Position numbers and translations under genes: made by a program. A model generated the notes under the pieces. It had not been told where the DNA came from and searched no databases. It worked only from the letters and a program-made list of their open reading frames with translations. A stretch of 63,736 nucleotides of DNA, counting the filler, from Candidatus Fermentibacterota bacterium (GTDB taxonomy: Bacteria; JAFGKV01), in assembly GCA_016928395.1 (NCBI GenBank). It is 10 parts of 10 records of this genome, joined end to end, with 100 filler letters (N's around TTAATTAATTAA, not from the genome) between each part and the next. Parts side by side here need not be neighbours in the genome. Positions count along the whole stretch, not along the records: positions 38,641 to 42,370 come from JAFGKV010000307.1; 9 more parts are not named here. One strand, written 5' to 3'. This document shows, one piece after another, positions 438 through 42,470 of the stretch. Position 1 is the first letter of the stretch. Every line of letters begins with the position of its first letter.

Positions 438-3155
438 ATGAATACGAAGCGAGTGTTCTTTTTCGGTGCGGGCGAGGCGGAAGGCTCGGAGCAGATGCGC
501 AATCTCCTAGGGGGCAAGGGGGCAGGCCTGGCCGACATGACGAGGCTTGGGCTTCCCGTCCCTCCCGGTTTCACCATCTCCACGGAAGTATGTACCTACT
601 TCTACGAGCATGGCGAAACATACCCGGGTTCGCTCAGCGAAGAAGTCGATGATGCGCTTCTCCGGGTCGAGAGGATAATGGACCGTCGTTTCGGAGATCC
701 CCAACGGCCACTCCTGGTATCCGTGCGCAGCGGCGCCCGGGCGTCCATGCCCGGCATGATGGACACTGTGCTCAACCTTGGGCTGAATGACGCCACGGTC
801 CAAGGCCTCATCGACATGGGCGGCGAACCGCGGTTCGCCTACGACAGCTACCGCCGTTTCGTGCAGATGTACGGCGATGTGGTATTGGGTCTCAAGCCGG
901 CCTCCAAGAACGAGGAAGACCCCTTTGAGGTCATCATTCAACGGAAGAAAGCCGAAGTCGAAGCCATACAGGACCTGGATCTGTCTACCGACGACCTCAA
1001 GGACCTGGTGGCCCGGTTCAAGGCAGCCATCAAGTCAGAGACTGGCCACAGTTTCCCGGAGGATGCCCGCGAGCAGTTGTGGGGCGCCATCGGTGCGGTG
1101 TTTTGCTCGTGGAATAATGATCGTGCCATCGCGTATAGAAGACTCAATGATATTCCCGTGGAATGGGGCACCGCCGTGAACATCCAGGCTATGGTGTTCG
1201 GCAATATGGGGCCGCGATCCGGAACGGGTGTCGCATTCACTCGAAATCCCGCCACCGGCGAACGCCAACCCTATGGCGAGTATCTCATGAACGCCCAGGG
1301 AGAAGATGTCGTTGCCGGCATCCGGACGCCTCTGCCTCTGAGCGACCTGCAGCATGAGCGACCCGAGGTGTATGACCAGTTGACCTCCACGTTCCAGCGT
1401 TTGGAGCAGCATTACCGCGAGATGCAGGATGTGGAGTTCACCATTCAGGATGACAAGCTGTGGATGCTCCAGACCAGGTCCGGCAAGCGCACGGGATTTG
1501 CGGCGGTGCGTATCGCCGTGGAGATGGCCGAAGAGGGGCTCATCTCCGAGGAAGAGGCAATCCGGCGGGTCAATCCTGAGCAGCTCAATCACTTGCTGCG
1601 GCCAGTCTTCGATCCCGAGGAGAAGCGCCAGGCGGTGGCCGCCGATGGACGACTGCTGGCCAAGGGCCTCAATGCAGGGCCTGGCGCGGCCTGCGGCAAG
1701 GTTGTCTTTCATGCTGTCGACGCGCAGGAGTGGAAGGCCAAGGACCAGAACGTGATTCTGGTCCGCATCGAGACGAGCCCTGAAGACATTCGCGGCATGC
1801 ACGCCGCGGAGGGCATTCTCACCGCCCGGGGAGGCATGACATCCCACGCGGCATTGGTCGCCCGCCAGATGGGCAAAGTATGCGTTGCCGGATGCAGCGC
1901 CTTGCGCATCGACTATGCGCAATCCCTCATGCTGGTAGGGGACCACACCATCAGGCAAGGCGATGTGATCAGCATCGACGGATTCACGGGTGAAGTGATC
2001 CTCGGCGAACTCAAGACCCGCCCCTCCGAGGTCGTTCAGGTGCTGATCGAAGGCTCGTTACCCGCGGACGCGTCGATCATCTACCAGAAGTATGAGAAGC
2101 TCATGTCCTGGGCTGATACGTACCGAAGGCTTCGTATTCGTACCAATGCCGATCAGCCGGACCAGTCCCGCAATGCCCGAGCCTTCGGCGCCGAGGGGAT
2201 CGGACTGTGCCGCACAGAGCATATGTTCTTTGGCGGTCATCGCATCGACGCCATGCGGGAGATGATCCTTGCAGAGGATACACCCGGTCGAGAGCAGGCC
2301 CTTGCCCGGCTCCTGCCCATGCAGCGGGAGGACTTCATAGGCATATTCCGGGCCATGGATGGGTTACCGGTCACGATCAGAACGCTGGATCCGCCGCTCC
2401 ATGAATTCCTCCCCCATGGTGATGCCGGCATCCAAGAACTGGCAGCCAGCATGCAGATTCCGGCCTATCGGCTCAAAGCGAAGGTGGAAGCCCTGAGGGA
2501 GTCCAACCCAATGCTCGGGCACCGCGGGTGCCGCCTGGGGATCTTTTACCCCGAAATCACGGCCATGCAGGCGCGGGCGATTGTGGAGGCAGCCTGTATC
2601 GTTGCCAAGGAAGGCGTTCGAGTAATCCCGGAAATCATGATTCCCGTTGTCTTCGAGCGACGGGAGTTGCAGAACCAGGAGCGGATCGTGCGAAAGGTGG
2701 CGGAAGATGTGTTTGCCGAACAGGGTATTCGGGTTGACTACCTTGTGGGCACGATGATCGAGTTGCCACGAGCTGCCATCACGGCTGATCAGATCGCCAA
2801 GAACGCCGAGTTCTTCTCGTTCGGCACAAACGACCTGACCCAGACGACCCTCGGCATTTCCCGGGATGACGCGGGGAGCTTCCTGCCCTACTATGTAGAG
2901 CATGACATCGTACCCCATGACCCGTTCGAGAGCATCGATAGCGAGGGGGTTGGCGAACTCATGAGGATTGGTGTGGAGCGGGGCCGGAAAACCCGACCGG
3001 AACTCAAAGTCGGCATTTGCGGCGAACATGGTGGTGATCCCGCGACAGTGGAGTTCTGCCACGAAATCGGGCTGGACTATGTGAGCTGTTCACCCTTCCG
3101 CGTGCCCATCGCGCGTCTGGCAGCAGCCAGGGCGGCCTTGGCCTGCCGCGACTGA
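438..3155 (+). CDS. ppdK: Pyruvate, phosphate dikinase
   Basis: [19 protein letters not shown], phospho-His motif [39 protein letters not shown]; 905 aa; GAGGAGG RBS. Confidence 0.98.
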
Positions 3156-3161
3156 TTCCCC

Positions 3162-5012
3162 ATGCTCCATGTCGTTCGTACCGCGGGCCAGGGTGGCGTC
3201 GCTCTGGCGTACCCGGAGATTGACCCACGCACCGGTGAGCTGGTACACTTCGTGGCGGTCACGGCCCAGGGATTCCATGCCCGGGAGGTTGCCTCCGAGA
3301 CGGTGGCCCGGCTGCTGGTTTCCGTGGCGGATCCGGCGGCCTGGCATGACGGTCCTGCCGCCATGGTCCGCCACGCCCTTGCCTCGGTCGAACCGATGAC
3401 GGTGCACGGAGGTGTCGCGGTCTCTACGGCGGTTGCCATCAGGAAAGGTCATTCCGTGGAGGTTGCCTTCTCGGGCGACCTCCAGATTCGGTTGGCTTCC
3501 GCCGGTGATTCCCGATGGCACGTGCCGGGCGTCAAGCACGGTGACCCGGTGACCGCGGTCACGTACACGCCTCGTCGGGGAGACATGCTGGTAATCGTGA
3601 CGTTGGGTATCCTTGAGGAGATACCGCCCCAGGAGCTTCTGTCCACGGTGTTGTCGTCCGAGCATGAAGGCGGCGCCGCGTTGGTCGAGGCCCACGTCTC
3701 CTCCAGCCGCCTTCCCCATGTGTTCTGTGCGACCCGCTACGGCGGCCCCGCGCTTCCGAAGATGCCCATTCCTGTCCAGGCGACCCGGCGAAAGGTGCGC
3801 TGGAGTGTGGTGGGTCCGGCGGCCCTTGTCCTGGCTGCGCTGGGCATCGCCGGTGCCGTATGGAAACCCTGGACCCGTGCCCAACCCCAACGCCAGGCGC
3901 CACGGGTCACGGCCCCGCGACCACCGGCGCCTTTGCCCCGCATGCCCGATACGGCTCTTGCCTCGGAGGAGGCTGTGGCTTCGGCAGACACTTTGGGGGA
4001 AGTCGTTGCTGCCGACACTGTCGAGGAGGCCATGGCCATGCCCTCCTCGACGCCAGGCGAGCTTGTCTGGAAGCAGCGGATCGGCGGATCGAATTTCTCA
4101 TCGTCACCGGCATTGGCGGGGATGAAGGTCTACGTGGGAAGCAAGGACGGCCATCTCTACTGCCTCTTGTCGTCCAGCGGCGAGGTGCTGTGGAAATTCA
4201 AGACCGGAGGCGGCATCGGTTCATCTCCCGCGGTTGACGGCGCCAGCGTGTATTTCGGCAGCTATGACAGCACCTTCTACTGCGTGGACCGTCATGCCGG
4301 CCGGGAGATCTGGAGCGCACGGGTCGGCGCCAGCATTGGCGCCAGCCCTTTGGTGCATGAGGGTGCGGTGTACTGCGGATGCAAAGACGGCAGGGTATAC
4401 GCGTGGGACGGGCATTCGGGTCTGCCCCGGTGGCAACTCGAGACCAAGGCCGAGGTGTGGGCGCGGCCTCTGGCGGTCGGCTCCCATCTCTTCATCGGGA
4501 GCCTCGATCGACGATTCTACTGCGTAGATGCCGAAACGGGCATGGTGGTCTGGTCCATCGAAGTCGCGGGGGCAGTCTACACATCGGCAGCCGCCGGGCC
4601 GGAGAATACTGTCATATTCGCCGCCAATGATGGCACTGTGTACCAGGTACACCAGCGGGACGGCGCCGTAGTCTGGACCGGCACGTTCCAGCCGATCTAC
4701 TCATCTCCCCTGGTGGCCAATGGCATGCTGTTCTTCGGCTGTACCGATGGAGACGTTCACTGTGTCTCCCTGAAGGAGCACCGAGAGGTCTGGAAGTACA
4801 CCACAGGCGCGGCTGTGAGATCATCGCCCACCCTGGCCGCCGGCACGCTTCTGGTCGGAAGCTATGACGGGAGGCTGTATGCCTTTGCGGTCAGCGGGAA
4901 ACGCAAGTGGGCCCACGACACTGAGTCTCGCATCTATTCCACGCCCGCCATCGGAGCACAAAGGGCGTACTTCGGCGACATGACCGGATGGTTCCGCTGT
5001 GTGGGAATGTGA
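3162..5012 (+). CDS. Membrane protein: degenerate PP2C-like N-terminal domain, one TM helix, Pro/Ala linker, C-terminal PQQ/BamB-like beta-propeller
   Basis: Repeated SSP-x-V...VY-x-GS-x-DG-x-LY...G-x-x-x-W propeller blades; TM VVGPAALVLAALGIAGAVW; N-terminus resembles PP2C motifs without the catalytic Asp residues. Confidence 0.8.
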   Translation: MLHVVRTAGQGGVALAYPEIDPRTGELVHFVAVTAQGFHAREVASETVARLLVSVADPAAWHDGPAAMVRHALASVEPMTVHGGVAVSTAVAIRKGHSVEVAFSGDLQIRLASAGDSRWHVPGVKHGDPVTAVTYTPRRGDMLVIVTLGILEEIPPQELLSTVLSSEHEGGAALVEAHVSSSRLPHVFCATRYGGPALPKMPIPVQATRRKVRWSVVGPAALVLAALGIAGAVWKPWTRAQPQRQAPRVTAPRPPAPLPRMPDTALASEEAVASADTLGEVVAADTVEEAMAMPSSTPGELVWKQRIGGSNFSSSPALAGMKVYVGSKDGHLYCLLSSSGEVLWKFKTGGGIGSSPAVDGASVYFGSYDSTFYCVDRHAGREIWSARVGASIGASPLVHEGAVYCGCKDGRVYAWDGHSGLPRWQLETKAEVWARPLAVGSHLFIGSLDRRFYCVDAETGMVVWSIEVAGAVYTSAAAGPENTVIFAANDGTVYQVHQRDGAVVWTGTFQPIYSSPLVANGMLFFGCTDGDVHCVSLKEHREVWKYTTGAAVRSSPTLAAGTLLVGSYDGRLYAFAVSGKRKWAHDTESRIYSTPAIGAQRAYFGDMTGWFRCVGM

Positions 5013-38540: not shown

Positions 38541-38962
38541 NNNNNNNNNNNNNNNNNNNNNNNNNNNNNNNNNNNNNNNNNNNNTTAATTAATTAANNNN
38601 NNNNNNNNNNNNNNNNNNNNNNNNNNNNNNNNNNNNNNNNCTCCAGGTTCTCGAAGGAATCCGCATCCACGCGCGGGGGGCCGGCAGTTTCGCTATTCAT
38701 GAGGAGCGTCCATCGGGGTCACCCATTGCTCTTTTGATTGTGAGACCGGATTCCACCTTCGCCAGGCGTTGCCGAGCACCTTCGTTTCTTCCGAGCGCTT
38801 GCGCACAGACGTCCTACCCCTGTTGTCATACTCGACGTGTCCCGACCGAGCACCGGTGCTCTCTCCGTGAGCGTGATACGCCGTCCTCCCTGCACCCACC
38901 CATGCCACTACCGATCGTGCCTCCGGTGCGCGCCTCCCCCTTCGAGCTGTCGCTAATGGCAC

Positions 38963-39733
38963 TCAACCATCGGAATACTGTGCGTCCCCAAGCCTAAGCA
39001 GGAACCCTCTGAAACTGTCGAGCCGATAGGGAAGCTCGCTCCGGACACAGAATGCAGCCACAATCCTGGCCGTTGAGTTATCGACGACCACGATTGTCGG
39101 CGATTGCTGGATACCCAAGGATGAGAACAGAACCTCCCCGTGGCCCTCAGCAACGACGAAGGACCTGTAGCTATGGTCTGCGGCACGCATCAGCTTGAGG
39201 AAGTACGGGCTCTGGGTCTCGCTCACGAGAGAGAACACATCAATGGACGGGTGACCTGCACTCGAGATCTCCGAAAGGAGGACGACTTCCTCCGCAATGC
39301 ACGAGGTGCAGCCGATGATGGGCACTACGAGAACCACACTGTAGGGCTTGTTGGAGCGGCGCATGCGCAGCCTGGCCCCGGATCTGTGCTCGCGGAGGTC
39401 CATCCCCTCCAGAAACTCCACGCTTCGGCCCAGAGGCCCTTGTTCGGCCTGTGCGGCAGAACGTTCTGCTTCAAGCACGATTCCGAGGGTTGTTGTCCTT
39501 CCTCGGCACTCACGCAGTTCTCGCTTGGACTGAAGACACACTCTTGCCAGCCCCGCATTCAGGATCACCAAGCCAACTAGAAGAACTGATACGATCACGA
39601 TCCCAGTCACATGACGAATGCGCCGGACACCCTTTGTGGACGCTGTTGCACTGGCTGGCGGGCCTGCACCCGCTTTGTCGCTCTGCCCTTGGTCGGCCTG
39701 TGCGGACAGTCTTCGTTCGCGATCCTCTCTCAT
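38963..39733 (-). CDS. Membrane-anchored thioredoxin-fold protein (CxxC)
   Basis: One TM helix; beta strand-GCTSC-helix; late LGIQQSPTIVVVD cis-Pro-like motif; ATG overlaps upstream stop (ATGA). Confidence 0.72.
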   Translation of the reverse strand: MREDRERRLSAQADQGQSDKAGAGPPASATASTKGVRRIRHVTGIVIVSVLLVGLVILNAGLARVCLQSKRELRECRGRTTTLGIVLEAERSAAQAEQGPLGRSVEFLEGMDLREHRSGARLRMRRSNKPYSVVLVVPIIGCTSCIAEEVVLLSEISSAGHPSIDVFSLVSETQSPYFLKLMRAADHSYRSFVVAEGHGEVLFSSLGIQQSPTIVVVDNSTARIVAAFCVRSELPYRLDSFRGFLLRLGDAQYSDG

Positions 39734-40857
39734 TGTGCCATCCTGTAGAGGTAGAGGATCGCCAGGGTCGAGTCGGAGGCACACACCTCAGGGCTCGATG
39801 TGTCTGCCGCGATCAACACATCTTCACTCGATGCCACGATTCTTTGCCACTTGGCGCAGAATCGCATCTGCTCCTTCAGGAGGTCACCCCAGGCGTCATA
39901 CACGTCGAAGTGCTGACAGCCATCATAGACGAAATGTCCCACGAGCATGAGACGTCCAAACCGCAGAATCCTCTGAATGGTCTGCCGATCTCTCATCAGT
40001 TCGAGCGTCTGGCGGATTCCGCCGGAGGCTGCTTGCTTCAGCAGGTCAGCGTTGGGCACGAAGTCCTTGTCGAGAAGATGCTGCCCCGTTTCCCCGACGA
40101 ACCGTCCCTCCGTGGTGAAGATGCCAATAGTGGGCCGCCAAATGCCCCCCACCCAGACCGTCCCGAGGGGTGAGAACGCAATGTCCCCACCTCCAACTGC
40201 AGCCTGTTGCGCCCCCGGTTCATCGTCGAAGAACTCACCCGCAATGTGGAAATCACGGGTGACTTTCACTACTCGCTTCCCGCCTCTCACCGGCACATAG
40301 AGGAAGTACCCACCAGAAGCGGGAAGAAGACGAACCGCGGCGAGAATGCGGTCGAACGTGCTCGCGGGGATCATCCGGCTAAACGCAAACGAGGATGTGT
40401 AGATGTTGTAGTTGGGTGGATTGAGGTTCTCGACCACGATCTCGCCTCGCGAGTTCATGGCGATTGCCCTTGGCTGGAAATACTCGCCGGGGCCTTCTCC
40501 ATGCCGCCCGATCATTGTCATGAAGTCCCCATCTTCCGCGAAGACTAGAACACGTTTCGCCACCCAGATGTCGAGGACGAGAAAGCCGGCTCCATACATG
40601 ACGACATCGTCGACGTCTCCAAGCAGAGCATCGGGCCCGCCCTTTCTGAGCTCCACTCGTCTCTCGAGGACCAACGACTCATCCAGTGACCCGCAGTCTC
40701 TGATGACGGTGGCTGCTCGCTCATCGTCCGGTCCCGGGCGTGGCCTCTCGTCCTGCATTCGCTGACAGCCCAGCAACAAGACCGCTACGAGCGACGTCAA
40801 GACGAGGAATAGGCCTGCCCCTGGCGAAGTGGCGATCCTCTCTCCTTGCTTCATCAT
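39730..40857 (-). CDS. 6-bladed beta-propeller (NHL-like) lipoprotein
   Basis: Lipobox LLLGC; VLVFAEDGDFMTMIGRHGEGPGEYFQP signature; GGAGG upstream. Confidence 0.85.
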   Translation of the reverse strand: MMKQGERIATSPGAGLFLVLTSLVAVLLLGCQRMQDERPRPGPDDERAATVIRDCGSLDESLVLERRVELRKGGPDALLGDVDDVVMYGAGFLVLDIWVAKRVLVFAEDGDFMTMIGRHGEGPGEYFQPRAIAMNSRGEIVVENLNPPNYNIYTSSFAFSRMIPASTFDRILAAVRLLPASGGYFLYVPVRGGKRVVKVTRDFHIAGEFFDDEPGAQQAAVGGGDIAFSPLGTVWVGGIWRPTIGIFTTEGRFVGETGQHLLDKDFVPNADLLKQAASGGIRQTLELMRDRQTIQRILRFGRLMLVGHFVYDGCQHFDVYDAWGDLLKEQMRFCAKWQRIVASSEDVLIAADTSSPEVCASDSTLAILYLYRMAQ

Positions 40858-40896
40858 CCGGATCCATACCTCCCTATGGCGATGCCAGGGCTGGAT

Positions 40897-40934
40897 CCGC
40901 CCATCGCGCTGGACGCAGTCAGTGCGATGGGCGG
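40897..40934. promoter_or_regulatory. Strong intergenic stem-loop between the peptide and propeller genes
   Basis: CCGCCCATCGC/GCGATGGGCGG 11-bp perfect arms, 14 of 15 when extended. Confidence 0.6.
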
Positions 40935-41087
40935 CCAGGTGTGTACCAGATAGCATGTTCCGAGTAATGATGGGCGATCACTTCGCTGGCACTTGTTTCA
41001 TACTTGGCTGTGCCACCGGCCGAGCCTCAACCCGGCCTACTGCGAGGCTTCACGGCATGCCAGACGAGAACGATCCTGCAGTTTCCG

Positions 41088-41360
41088 TCAGCCGCACAGG
41101 GTAGCCGAACAGGAGTTGCTGCCGGCTTCGCAGACAATCTTGTACCCGTCTTTGATGTTCCCCATGATGTCTGTGTAGGTGCATGTGACCACTAGGGGCT
41201 GCCAGGCACCCGTCGGACTCGTTGCGTCACCTGCTTGGCTTCCACCCATCAGTTCTTTAACCCAGTCGATTAGGTCCTGCAAGGTAGTAGCAGATACGGG
41301 AGCAGCCAGGAGCGATAGCGTGAGTATTGCCACCGGCAAGGAAAGAGCTAAGCGTCTCAT
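41088..41360 (-). CDS. Small secreted cysteine-rich peptide (90 aa)
   Basis: AAGGAGG RBS; Sec signal ending VSA; C-terminal C-x16-C-x6-C-x4-C-G. Confidence 0.8.
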   Translation of the reverse strand: MRRLALSLPVAILTLSLLAAPVSATTLQDLIDWVKELMGGSQAGDATSPTGAWQPLVVTCTYTDIMGNIKDGYKIVCEAGSNSCSATLCG

Positions 41361-41509
41361 TCTACCCTCCTTCATTCGTGAGCATGCAGCGGCAAGCTCA
41401 GGGCAAGGAACTTTCGGTCGGTCGGTCGATGCCAACCACCGACGGGTCGGGAGACTCCTCTTCCAGAGGAACAAGCCTTCAGAGCGCAAGCATGTGCATC
41501 ACCTCCGAT

Positions 41510-41809
41510 CTACTCGATAAGCCAATCCTGCGAGCCAACCACATCAATCCCAGAAACCAGATGCGCACACGAGCCGCATCCGCTGCGGTCGAGTGATTCG
41601 TAGACCGGGCCGACGGTAACGGTGTCGCGCAGGACCTTCAAGTACCTCAGATCCCCCCACAGGGTCTCGGGCTCAAAGGAGAAGCCTTCGTCCAAACGGC
41701 TGGTGGCCCCGGCGGCGAGATCGTTCAGATCCGGGGCAGGCTCGGCTGCCCGGAGTGGCGCGAGGCCACCGCACAGACTGCAGAAGAGCAGCAGGAGGGA
41801 TACCATCAT
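41510..41809 (-). CDS. Short signal-peptide-bearing protein or 5' gene remnant
   Basis: GGAGG RBS; hydrophobic N-terminus; 99 aa; no recognisable domain. Confidence 0.45.
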   Translation of the reverse strand: MMVSLLLLFCSLCGGLAPLRAAEPAPDLNDLAAGATSRLDEGFSFEPETLWGDLRYLKVLRDTVTVGPVYESLDRSGCGSCAHLVSGIDVVGSQDWLIE

Positions 41810-41867
41810 TCATGCCTCCTGCGTCTGCGGGGTGTGGATCATGGTGATGGCGCGGGGGGATGGGGCG

Positions 41868-41936
41868 TCGAAATCGATATCGGAATCGACATCGGTCGCT
41901 CGGCTCCATAGCGATACCGACTCCGATTGCGATAGC
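41868..41936. repeat. Inverted hexamer-repeat hairpin (ATCGRN / CGATAC family)
   Basis: TCGAAATCGATATCGGAATCGACATCGG paired with CGATACCGACTCCGATTGCGATAGC; related arms near 45418, 47700, 54760, 54922. Confidence 0.65.
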
Positions 41937-42179
41937 AGGAACGATTGGAAACGCAGAACGCCGTGCCGCCCCATGGGAAATGGTCTACGCAGTAGAGATG
42001 GAGACGATACCGCCTGAAAGGAGGGACGGGAGCGACGGTGTTCTAGCGGGGGGGGGGGACGACTGAGCGCATCCCCGCGCATGCTGCAATCACGATGCCG
42101 TCGTGTGTTTCGAATACCGCTCCCATTTTGGCCTCCTGGGATCCACAACTCATGGACTATGGATCACTAACCAGCCGGC

Positions 42180-42208
42180 CTTATACAAGGGGTCAGGCCA
42201 TTTGTCAA
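42180..42208 (-). promoter_or_regulatory. Near-consensus sigma70 promoter facing the peptide cassette
   Basis: Minus strand TTGACA-17 nt-TATAAG. Confidence 0.7.
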
Positions 42209-42470
42209 GGGCAATCTTCGCCCCGCCGGGGAGGCGGCGCTGTCAGCCCTACGCGACCCGTCGGCTTGATGAACCTTGCCTGCGGTGGGCGCGGTGCTAC
42301 TTTTCGCGCTTCGCTGTTCGTGTCAGCCCCAGGAGGCTGCAGGCCGTGGAGGCATCCTGCGTGGAGGGGCNNNNNNNNNNNNNNNNNNNNNNNNNNNNNN
42401 NNNNNNNNNNNNNNTTAATTAATTAANNNNNNNNNNNNNNNNNNNNNNNNNNNNNNNNNNNNNNNNNNNN

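Follow-up and report, generated by a model that had tools for sequence, protein, structure and literature searches.

A Three-Gene Cassette for a Secreted Cysteine Peptide, a Propeller Lipoprotein and a Thioredoxin-Fold Protein in a Candidatus Fermentibacterota Genome

Introduction

This work concerns a three-gene cassette on the minus strand of a 63,736-nucleotide window, by which we mean the whole stretch of DNA analysed, made of ten joined parts of the assembly GCA_016928395.1 from a Candidatus Fermentibacterota bacterium. The cassette codes for a short secreted peptide with four cysteines (P0001), a beta-propeller lipoprotein (P0004) and a membrane-anchored thioredoxin-fold protein with a CxxC motif (P0006, called the redoxin below), and a first-pass annotation had proposed it as an extracytoplasmic peptide system. 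Several described systems combine some of these elements. The loci of bacteroidetocins, which are class IIf bacteriocins of Bacteroidales, present a 15-16 amino acid leader, a peptidase-ABC (ATP-binding cassette) exporter and a five-transmembrane protein and, like the cassette, they place a small four-cysteine peptide beside a thiol oxidoreductase of its own, to which the formation of the disulfides is ascribed (PMC6671954). Unlike them, the trio has a Sec signal and a propeller lipoprotein, and no C39 exporter was found.

In the mau cluster, MauA is the conserved catalytic subunit carrying tryptophan tryptophylquinone and MauB is a propeller of seven blades. The trio resembles this cluster by the association of a propeller, a small disulfide-rich chain and a thioredoxin-fold CxxC helper, with MauE in some related cassettes (for MauD and MauE of the mau cluster, see 10.64898/2026.03.05.709764). 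It differs by a hypervariable small chain and a six-bladed propeller; no MauE was found in the host genome (G000; 4.8 Mb, 62% GC, 94% complete), and no Pfam or NCBIfam match to MauA or MauB was obtained among the trio proteins.

A fusion of a thioredoxin-like domain with an NHL propeller is known in SOQ1. The two folds of the cassette are also those of NHLRC2, where they meet in one cleft around the cysteine motif CCINC (PMC6107167). The cassette codes, by contrast, for two separate membrane-tethered proteins and a peptide, whereas the NHLRC2 abstract mentions no peptide (PMC6107167). The fusion is absent at our locus, where two open reading frames (ORFs) are separated by a stop codon and an ATGA restart, and the same split is present in the related loci L036 and L184. 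In another bacterium, a 465-amino-acid protein (L170, G039:C1) matches both the redoxin and the propeller profiles and is an NHLRC2-like fusion.

In Bacteroidota, the small NVEALA proteins (PF14055) adjoin DUF5128/TolB-like propeller lipoproteins, and propeller lipoproteins of the DUF5128 type occur commonly, with no function assigned to them so far. The cassette resembles this neighbourhood through its short secreted cysteine peptide and a propeller of the same family, whose best structural match is 4RAA. Membership of P0001 in the NVEALA family is not supported: the motif is absent, and a Pfam scan up to an E-value of 1 gave no PF14055 match for P0001 or six relatives. Finally, bufferin-type peptides are Sec-exported cysteine peptides accompanied by MNIO (DUF692) enzymes and DoxX. 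P0001 is likewise a cysteine peptide precursor with a Sec signal; unlike for bufferins, a propeller and a redoxin are present, and neither MNIO nor DoxX was found in G000. A ribosomally synthesised and post-translationally modified peptide (RiPP) of the MNIO type was rejected, DUF692 (PF05114) giving no match in G000 while the control matched 1 of 14 genomes.

By the defining features tested, the trio belongs to none of the bacteroidetocin, mau and NHLRC2 systems. The literature searched gave no description of it, including with NVEALA and DUF5128 queries (subscription journals and supplements lay outside the scope), and it is apparently undescribed; a secreted disulfide peptide with a dedicated oxidoreductase is an idea already known.

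The Three Genes and Their Products

The features of the cassette, all on the minus strand and given in window coordinates, are the following:

41,088 to 41,360, minus: gene of the 90-amino-acid secreted four-cysteine peptide P0001, with a Sec-type signal, an amphipathic helix, a Gly/Ser linker and the pattern C-x16-C-x6-C-x4-C
41,366 to 41,371, minus: Shine-Dalgarno sequence AGGAGG, 5 nt before the peptide ATG, from sequence reading
41,289 to 41,360, minus: signal peptide predicted for residues 1-24, with its cleavage placed by eye after VSA, and a rule-based signal test
41,094 to 41,183, minus: four-cysteine core, residues 60-89, the portion conserved in relatives
39,730 to 40,857, minus: six-bladed NHL/DUF5128-type beta-propeller lipoprotein P0004, 375 amino acids, from its lipobox LLLG-C31, Pfam, model and fold search
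38,963 to 39,733, minus: membrane-anchored thioredoxin-fold (TlpA/AhpC-TSA-like) protein P0006, 256 amino acids, with an ATGA overlap with the propeller stop
39,299 to 39,310, minus: CxxC motif C142-T-S-C145, conserved in relatives

The three ORFs are co-oriented, as annotated, and lie entirely within a single 3730-bp contig (G000:C35, window 38,641 to 42,370). A gap of 230 bp separates the peptide gene from that of the propeller. Scored by codons, the annotated frame ranks first of the six in each of the three genes; for P0001, its score is 0.00 and those of the other frames range from -0.15 to -1.06.

The strong ribosome-binding site, the Sec-type signal and the four-cysteine C-terminal core that had been announced for P0001 are all present. 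The protein has a basic start followed by a hydrophobic stretch up to VSA, and cleavage after A24, judged by eye, would leave a mature chain of 66 residues with a net charge of -4. The cysteines follow the pattern C60-x16-C77-x6-C84-x4-C89 and are preceded by a Gly/Ser/Ala linker and by the segment QDLIDWVKELM, which is amphipathic (moment of 0.62, reached by 1.5% of 10,000 shuffles). This segment ends in a double glycine, as had been noticed, and that part of the annotation stands; the GG is not conserved, as the closest homolog lacks it and other relatives have a Gly/Ser linker with longer Gly/Ser runs. Since P0001 also has a Sec signal and no C39 peptidase was found in the 94%-complete genome, cleavage after GG was rejected. 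P0001 ends in Gly, and its relatives mostly do not. Searched alone, the peptide retrieved only itself by a word search among 5.8 billion proteins (8 candidates) and nothing usable from the Atlas; small peptide neighbours of propellers are invisible to ordinary homology search.

P0004 starts with MMKQ and matches the Pfam family DUF5128 (PF17170) with an E-value of 1.3e-11 and 44.7 bits, against a gathering cut-off of 22.9; this match is shared by 40 of 42 aligned propellers. Its AlphaFold2 model, computed with a 42-row alignment, has a predicted local distance difference test score (pLDDT) of 89.9 and replaced a single-sequence run at 32.9. The best PDB match of this model is 4RAA (B. fragilis BF0058, uncharacterised), with a Z of 23.7 and a root-mean-square deviation (rmsd) of 3.6 over 306 aligned residues, and the other nearest solved structures are NHL domains. 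Across the 42 propellers, only G110, G120, D96, F106, G122, P123 and E125 are near-invariant, all within the GxGxGPGE repeat motif. Because no polar residue is near-invariant beyond D96 and E125 of this motif, the alignment argues for a binding scaffold rather than an enzyme. A word search with the propeller alone retrieved only itself and one weak generic NHL protein. Co-folding of the peptide with the propeller scored 0.01 against a mark of 0.32, a value used neither for nor against binding, the fold of the partner being uncertain and no control pairs having been folded.

For P0006, the ATGA coupling, the membrane anchor and the GCTSC motif are as first described: a single transmembrane helix follows the basic stretch KGVRRIRH, and CxxC stands after the first core strand of a thioredoxin fold. 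Its structure neighbours in the Atlas are TlpA/AhpC-TSA/Redoxin proteins (TM 0.60-0.65); P0006 itself matches no Pfam family at E-values up to 1, and an AhpC-TSA match was obtained for 3 of 13 relatives. A phmmer search gave three distant relatives with 23-24% identity, two of which could be placed (L036 and L037). All three keep the CxxC motif, as do 29 of 29 aligned family members, a count that is partly circular, since the profile that retrieved the later members already contained the motif. Word searches with the redoxin profile returned nothing beyond the sequences already in it, and none of the 10 genomes from the phylum of G017 matched.

Recurrence and Co-Inheritance of the Cassette

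Judged from sequence, the cassette is a genuine member of a widespread and conserved peptide-propeller-redoxin module, predicted to be extracytoplasmic, and the interpretation of the first-pass annotation is partly supported, namely as to an extracytoplasmic peptide module, by the recurrent trio, a homologous peptide and the controls given below. Both placed relatives of the redoxin stand directly behind a related propeller. At L036, in a metagenome-assembled genome of Aminicenantia, peptide, propeller and redoxin follow each other in the same order as in the window and with the same ATGA overlap; its peptide combines a signal and an amphipathic helix with a GGGSS linker and a C-x13-C-x7-C-x4-C core, and BLASTP gave no alignment between this peptide and P0001. 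At L037, only 150 bp remain upstream of the propeller and redoxin before the contig ends, and no peptide end is seen there. When a propeller profile was applied to 351 genomes from the phylum of L036, scoring no more than 5 candidates in each, it matched 2 of them at E-values up to 1e-17.

One of these two matches, L184, is new and was found by the propeller search alone. It belongs to a genome of 29% GC, from a phylum other than that of the window, and presents in order a peptide, a propeller, a CxxC redoxin coupled to it by ATGA and another cysteine peptide. BLASTP aligns its peptide with P0001 over 28 positions, 12 of them identical (pairwise E-value of 4e-5), and the resemblance extends beyond the cysteines, being matched by 1 of 2000 shuffles with fixed cysteines. 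The small ORF has a homologous peptide in a syntenic locus, and it is conserved as a coding sequence. The peptide of L139 gave the same result in this shuffle test (1 of 2000), and five others with this spacing fall short of a clear pass (78 to 1007 of 2000). When 8 peptides are aligned, all 8 keep each of the four cysteines, and no other column is invariant.

The neighbourhoods of redoxin genes were then counted. Within the class Aminicenantia, a redoxin profile gave 66 listed matches, spread over 49 of 301 genomes. The 41 top redoxin matches (40 and L036), L037 and the window make 43 loci, from which L116, L118 and L123 were left out because the ORF caller found no redoxin ORF in them. A secreted cysteine peptide was scored by rule, as a co-oriented ORF of 50-125 amino acids with a signal-like start and at least 2 cysteines. 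Among the 40 remaining loci, window included, a co-oriented propeller is present in 35 and a co-oriented secreted cysteine peptide in 27; for loci outside the training alignment, these numbers are 23 and 19 out of 28. Applied to the opposite strand, this rule gave 0/40, and for other long genes at these loci it gave 0/47. At the 29 best redoxin-profile loci from 250 domain-wide genomes (1.5-kb flanks), an adjacent propeller was never seen and a peptide once, and two of these control loci, L180 and L153, may themselves be cassettes. A broader redoxin profile (A9), used for control only, matched 160 of 251 genomes, mostly with generic TlpA-like proteins. In G000, a rule-positive cysteine peptide stands beside 19 of 2019 long ORFs versus 4 of 13 propeller matches (three loci). 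The counted genomes are kin and not independent; the window genome and G017 (L027) belong to other phyla. Homologs of the propeller and CxxC proteins thus do have neighbouring cysteine peptides, at L036, at L184 and in most of the loci counted.

The trees of the two larger proteins add a further argument. Redoxin and propeller distances from 31 cassettes correlate (Spearman 0.49, a value reached by 0 of 2000 permutations), and hand-assigned peptide classes fall mostly on matching clades of both trees. Four cassettes of a single genome, G050, fall in three clades, and the trees therefore track the cassette and not the genome. This shows that the trio is inherited as a unit; tree agreement alone is no proof of physical co-adaptation. 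The peptide types themselves are unrelated, with 2, 4, 6, 8 or at least 12 cysteines, and appear by eye hairpin-like or helical. One helical four-cysteine class, C-x6-C ... C-x6-C, is well conserved (L127, L130, L141, L145, L146, L124, L148 and L134); it occupies separate clades among the propellers and among the redoxins, and an ABC ATPase gene stands alongside in four cases.

A scan of 55 of the 82 co-oriented neighbours found Pfam-confirmed MauE in 2 cassettes (L115 and L125), AraC-type regulators in 4, ABC ATPases in 4 and radical S-adenosylmethionine (SAM) proteins in 2. The AraC-type helix-turn-helix genes lie just upstream of their cassettes (L113 7223-7564, L136 7305-7655, L117 5970-6701 and L147 6860-7237), and three of the four code for only 113-125 amino acids.

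Proposed Mechanism and Alternative Explanations

The reading that we prefer, with a rough probability of 0.45, is that of a co-inherited module making a periplasmic, disulfide-locked mini-protein, which would be exported by Sec, have its disulfides formed or rearranged by the redoxin and be bound by a matched propeller. By sequence rules, P0001 would leave through Sec and be cleaved after A24. The basic stretch in front of its transmembrane helix suggests that the redoxin is oriented N-in/C-out, and the Omp85 proteins of the host would place the events in a periplasm. The peptide would be the substrate of the redoxin, with two disulfides formed or rearranged, by analogy with the bacteroidetocin oxidoreductases and MauD. 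The propeller, given the matching of clades and the lack of conserved catalytic residues, would be a non-enzymatic holder of its cognate peptide and could serve as a folding chaperone or as a receptor for self-recognition or immunity, perhaps beside the redoxin as in the NHLRC2 fusion. The least certain step is the last one, in which the folded peptide may be an exported ligand, signal or target-specific antagonist; such a role would explain the fast turnover of peptide types between cassettes. As to the direction of the redox reaction, MauE is reported to be a DsbB-like oxidase (10.64898/2026.03.05.709764), and its presence inside related cassettes points to oxidation.

Several observations weigh against this proposal. 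Simple block inheritance would give the same tree agreement, and the trees are read without displayed support values, with peptide labels assigned by hand and nearly all loci from one class. No rule-positive peptide was found in 13 of the 40 loci and no propeller in 5; by eye, L124, L133 and L134 do have a real peptide that the rule misses and some other misses are contig ends or generic redoxins, and L112 and L135 show no peptide by eye. Only 2 of 7 relatives of the four-cysteine type (L184 and L139) resemble P0001 beyond the cysteines at the 1-in-1000 level, and no accessory gene is common to all cassettes among the neighbours scanned. TlpA-like folds are usually reductants. Neither the partners that would re-oxidise a thiol oxidase of the DsbA/MauD kind (DsbB, VKOR and MauE) nor DoxX were found in G000, and two proteins of the DsbD/CcdA type were, which keeps alive a role of the redoxin as a reductase or isomerase.

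The trio offers a concrete and testable hypothesis for all three proteins at once, as substrate, folding catalyst and binding partner, and cognate as well as non-cognate pairs can be drawn from the matched clades to test specificity. A more tentative extension, which we think somewhat doubtful, is that these cassettes form a polymorphic ligand-receptor class, in which each cassette would combine a freely exchangeable disulfide-locked mini-protein with a propeller receptor matched to it and a folding catalyst of its own. If true, such modules would provide bacteria with signalling over private channels or with self/non-self discrimination, and would amount to a natural collection of small binder scaffolds that belongs neither with RiPPs and bacteriocins nor with the mau system. 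Peptides acting as ligands or antagonists would then be a large unexplored source of disulfide-stabilised mini-proteins.

Two other explanations deserve weighing, both of which we consider unlikely. In the first, the peptide would not be released but would stay with the propeller as the small chain of a periplasmic complex of two, built in the manner of methylamine dehydrogenase, and would lend it a variable specificity surface. The gene set has the composition of mauB/mauA/mauD/mauE (for the roles of mauD and mauE, see 10.64898/2026.03.05.709764), MauE does occur in L115 and L125, the peptide class tracks the propeller clade, and a subunit would suit a host with an outer membrane and cassettes for which the neighbour scan found no common exporter. 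Against it, the small chain has no conserved residue besides cysteines, hence no shared cofactor site, the propeller is six-bladed and NHL-type, and there are cassettes with a second peptide or a second propeller (L184, L147 and L133).

In the second, the redoxin would be a DsbD-fed reductase keeping the cysteines of the peptide free, the peptide a periplasmic thiol buffer or metal-binding buffer, and the propeller its dock or sensor. This would fit the TlpA/AhpC-TSA-like fold, a genome with two DsbD/CcdA proteins and no known oxidase found, the AraC-type regulators just upstream of four cassettes, and the origin of the only run holding this DNA, a sediment metagenome that may be the assembly source. 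It fits less well with MauE, an oxidase, in related cassettes, and with the bufferin-type MNIO/DUF692 enzyme that was looked for in G000 and not found; many unrelated scaffolds with a fixed cysteine spacing per class suit structural disulfides better than a generic chelator.

A double-glycine bacteriocin of the bacteroidetocin or class II type, cut after GG and accompanied by its own oxidoreductase, for which the propeller would be the immunity protein, is very improbable. It would account for the amphipathic helix ending in GG and for the ABC ATPase genes beside 4 cassettes of a different peptide class, and four cysteines with an adjoining thiol oxidoreductase are also found in bacteroidetocin loci (PMC6671954). 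P0001, however, has a Sec signal and a closest homolog without GG, and its charge of -4 is unlike that of a cationic membrane-lytic peptide. Moreover, the C39 peptidase has no match in G000 and none beside the gene, the control having matched 7 of 14 genomes, and the word 'propeller' does not occur in the main text of the bacteroidetocin paper (PMC6671954).

It is more improbable still that the propeller modifies the peptide, for instance as a PAL-like lyase amidating a C-terminal Gly. PAL is defined by its metal-binding His and catalytic Tyr/Arg. The terminal Gly of P0001 and the structural neighbour 3FW0 (PAL; Z of 18.0, rmsd of 3.7, 264 aligned) speak for such an activity; yet PAL ranks behind seven non-enzymatic or uncharacterised propellers, most peptide relatives do not share the terminal Gly and, since at no position of the 42 propellers does a His, Tyr or Arg reach 90% conservation, this candidate was rejected. 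Last, a chance neighbourhood or a spurious small ORF, which the silence of the word search and of the Atlas might suggest, is ruled out for practical purposes by the synteny at L184, the enrichment over three controls, the strong ribosome-binding site and the best-frame codon score.

Genomic Setting and Further Loci

An outer membrane is likely in the host, because Omp85 proteins are detected in G000. The collection searched holds three genomes of the host phylum, and with the queries used the trio was found in neither of the two closest, G001 (82% complete) and G002. This absence, together with a GC content at third codon positions of 0.63-0.70 for the three genes, versus a genome median of 0.74, and the shortened upstream paralog listed here, suggests a mobile, shuffled module; the propeller query gave no plasmid match.

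41,510 to 41,809, minus: upstream 99-amino-acid ORF, a shortened paralog of a longer gene on contig C309, outside the conserved trio

The identity of this ORF to copies on contigs C309 and C236 stops near 41,557, where loose contig ends are also found. The ORF and its leader region (window 41,510-41,894) are repeated with 80-85% identity at the peptide/propeller loci of C309 and C236, and both the window copy and that of C236 cease to match the longer gene of C309 at almost identical codon positions. This point looks like a recombination junction, with different cassettes placed behind a shared 5' region. The 86 bp of window 42,285-42,370 are identical to the end of contig C248, which suggests either a repeat common to these two peptide-propeller contigs or their adjacency in the chromosome. 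In the sediment run, the only one listed with the trio DNA, a 4761-bp contig reaches about 1.8 kb further downstream than the window.

Among the runs listed with this DNA there is none of RNA. A promoter scan gave 0 sites at the locus, with 4 terminator-like sites versus 2.2 expected. By eye, a minus-strand TTGACA with TATAAG 17 nt downstream is seen at window 42,184-42,206, about 370 bp before the upstream ORF; this pair failed the consensus promoter scan. Metatranscriptome data gave one 151-nt contig at depth 2 inside the redoxin gene and none on the peptide, which is uninformative either way.

Two further loci of G000 associate propellers with unrelated peptides. At C248 (1952-5320), a signal peptide-bearing ORF with 8 cysteines lies between two propeller genes. 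At C309 (1147-3203), a 103-amino-acid one with 12 cysteines comes after a propeller and a transmembrane-anchored protein without CxxC, which starts with MSRTVSTRV, occurs also on C236 and may be a degenerate redoxin. C236 itself (755-3980) presents a Cys/Gly-rich 55-amino-acid ORF without signal, then a cysteine-rich ORF named SPASM-like by eye, followed by two lipoprotein-like genes of which one is a propeller match, so that propellers are also found at a possible radical-SAM peptide locus.

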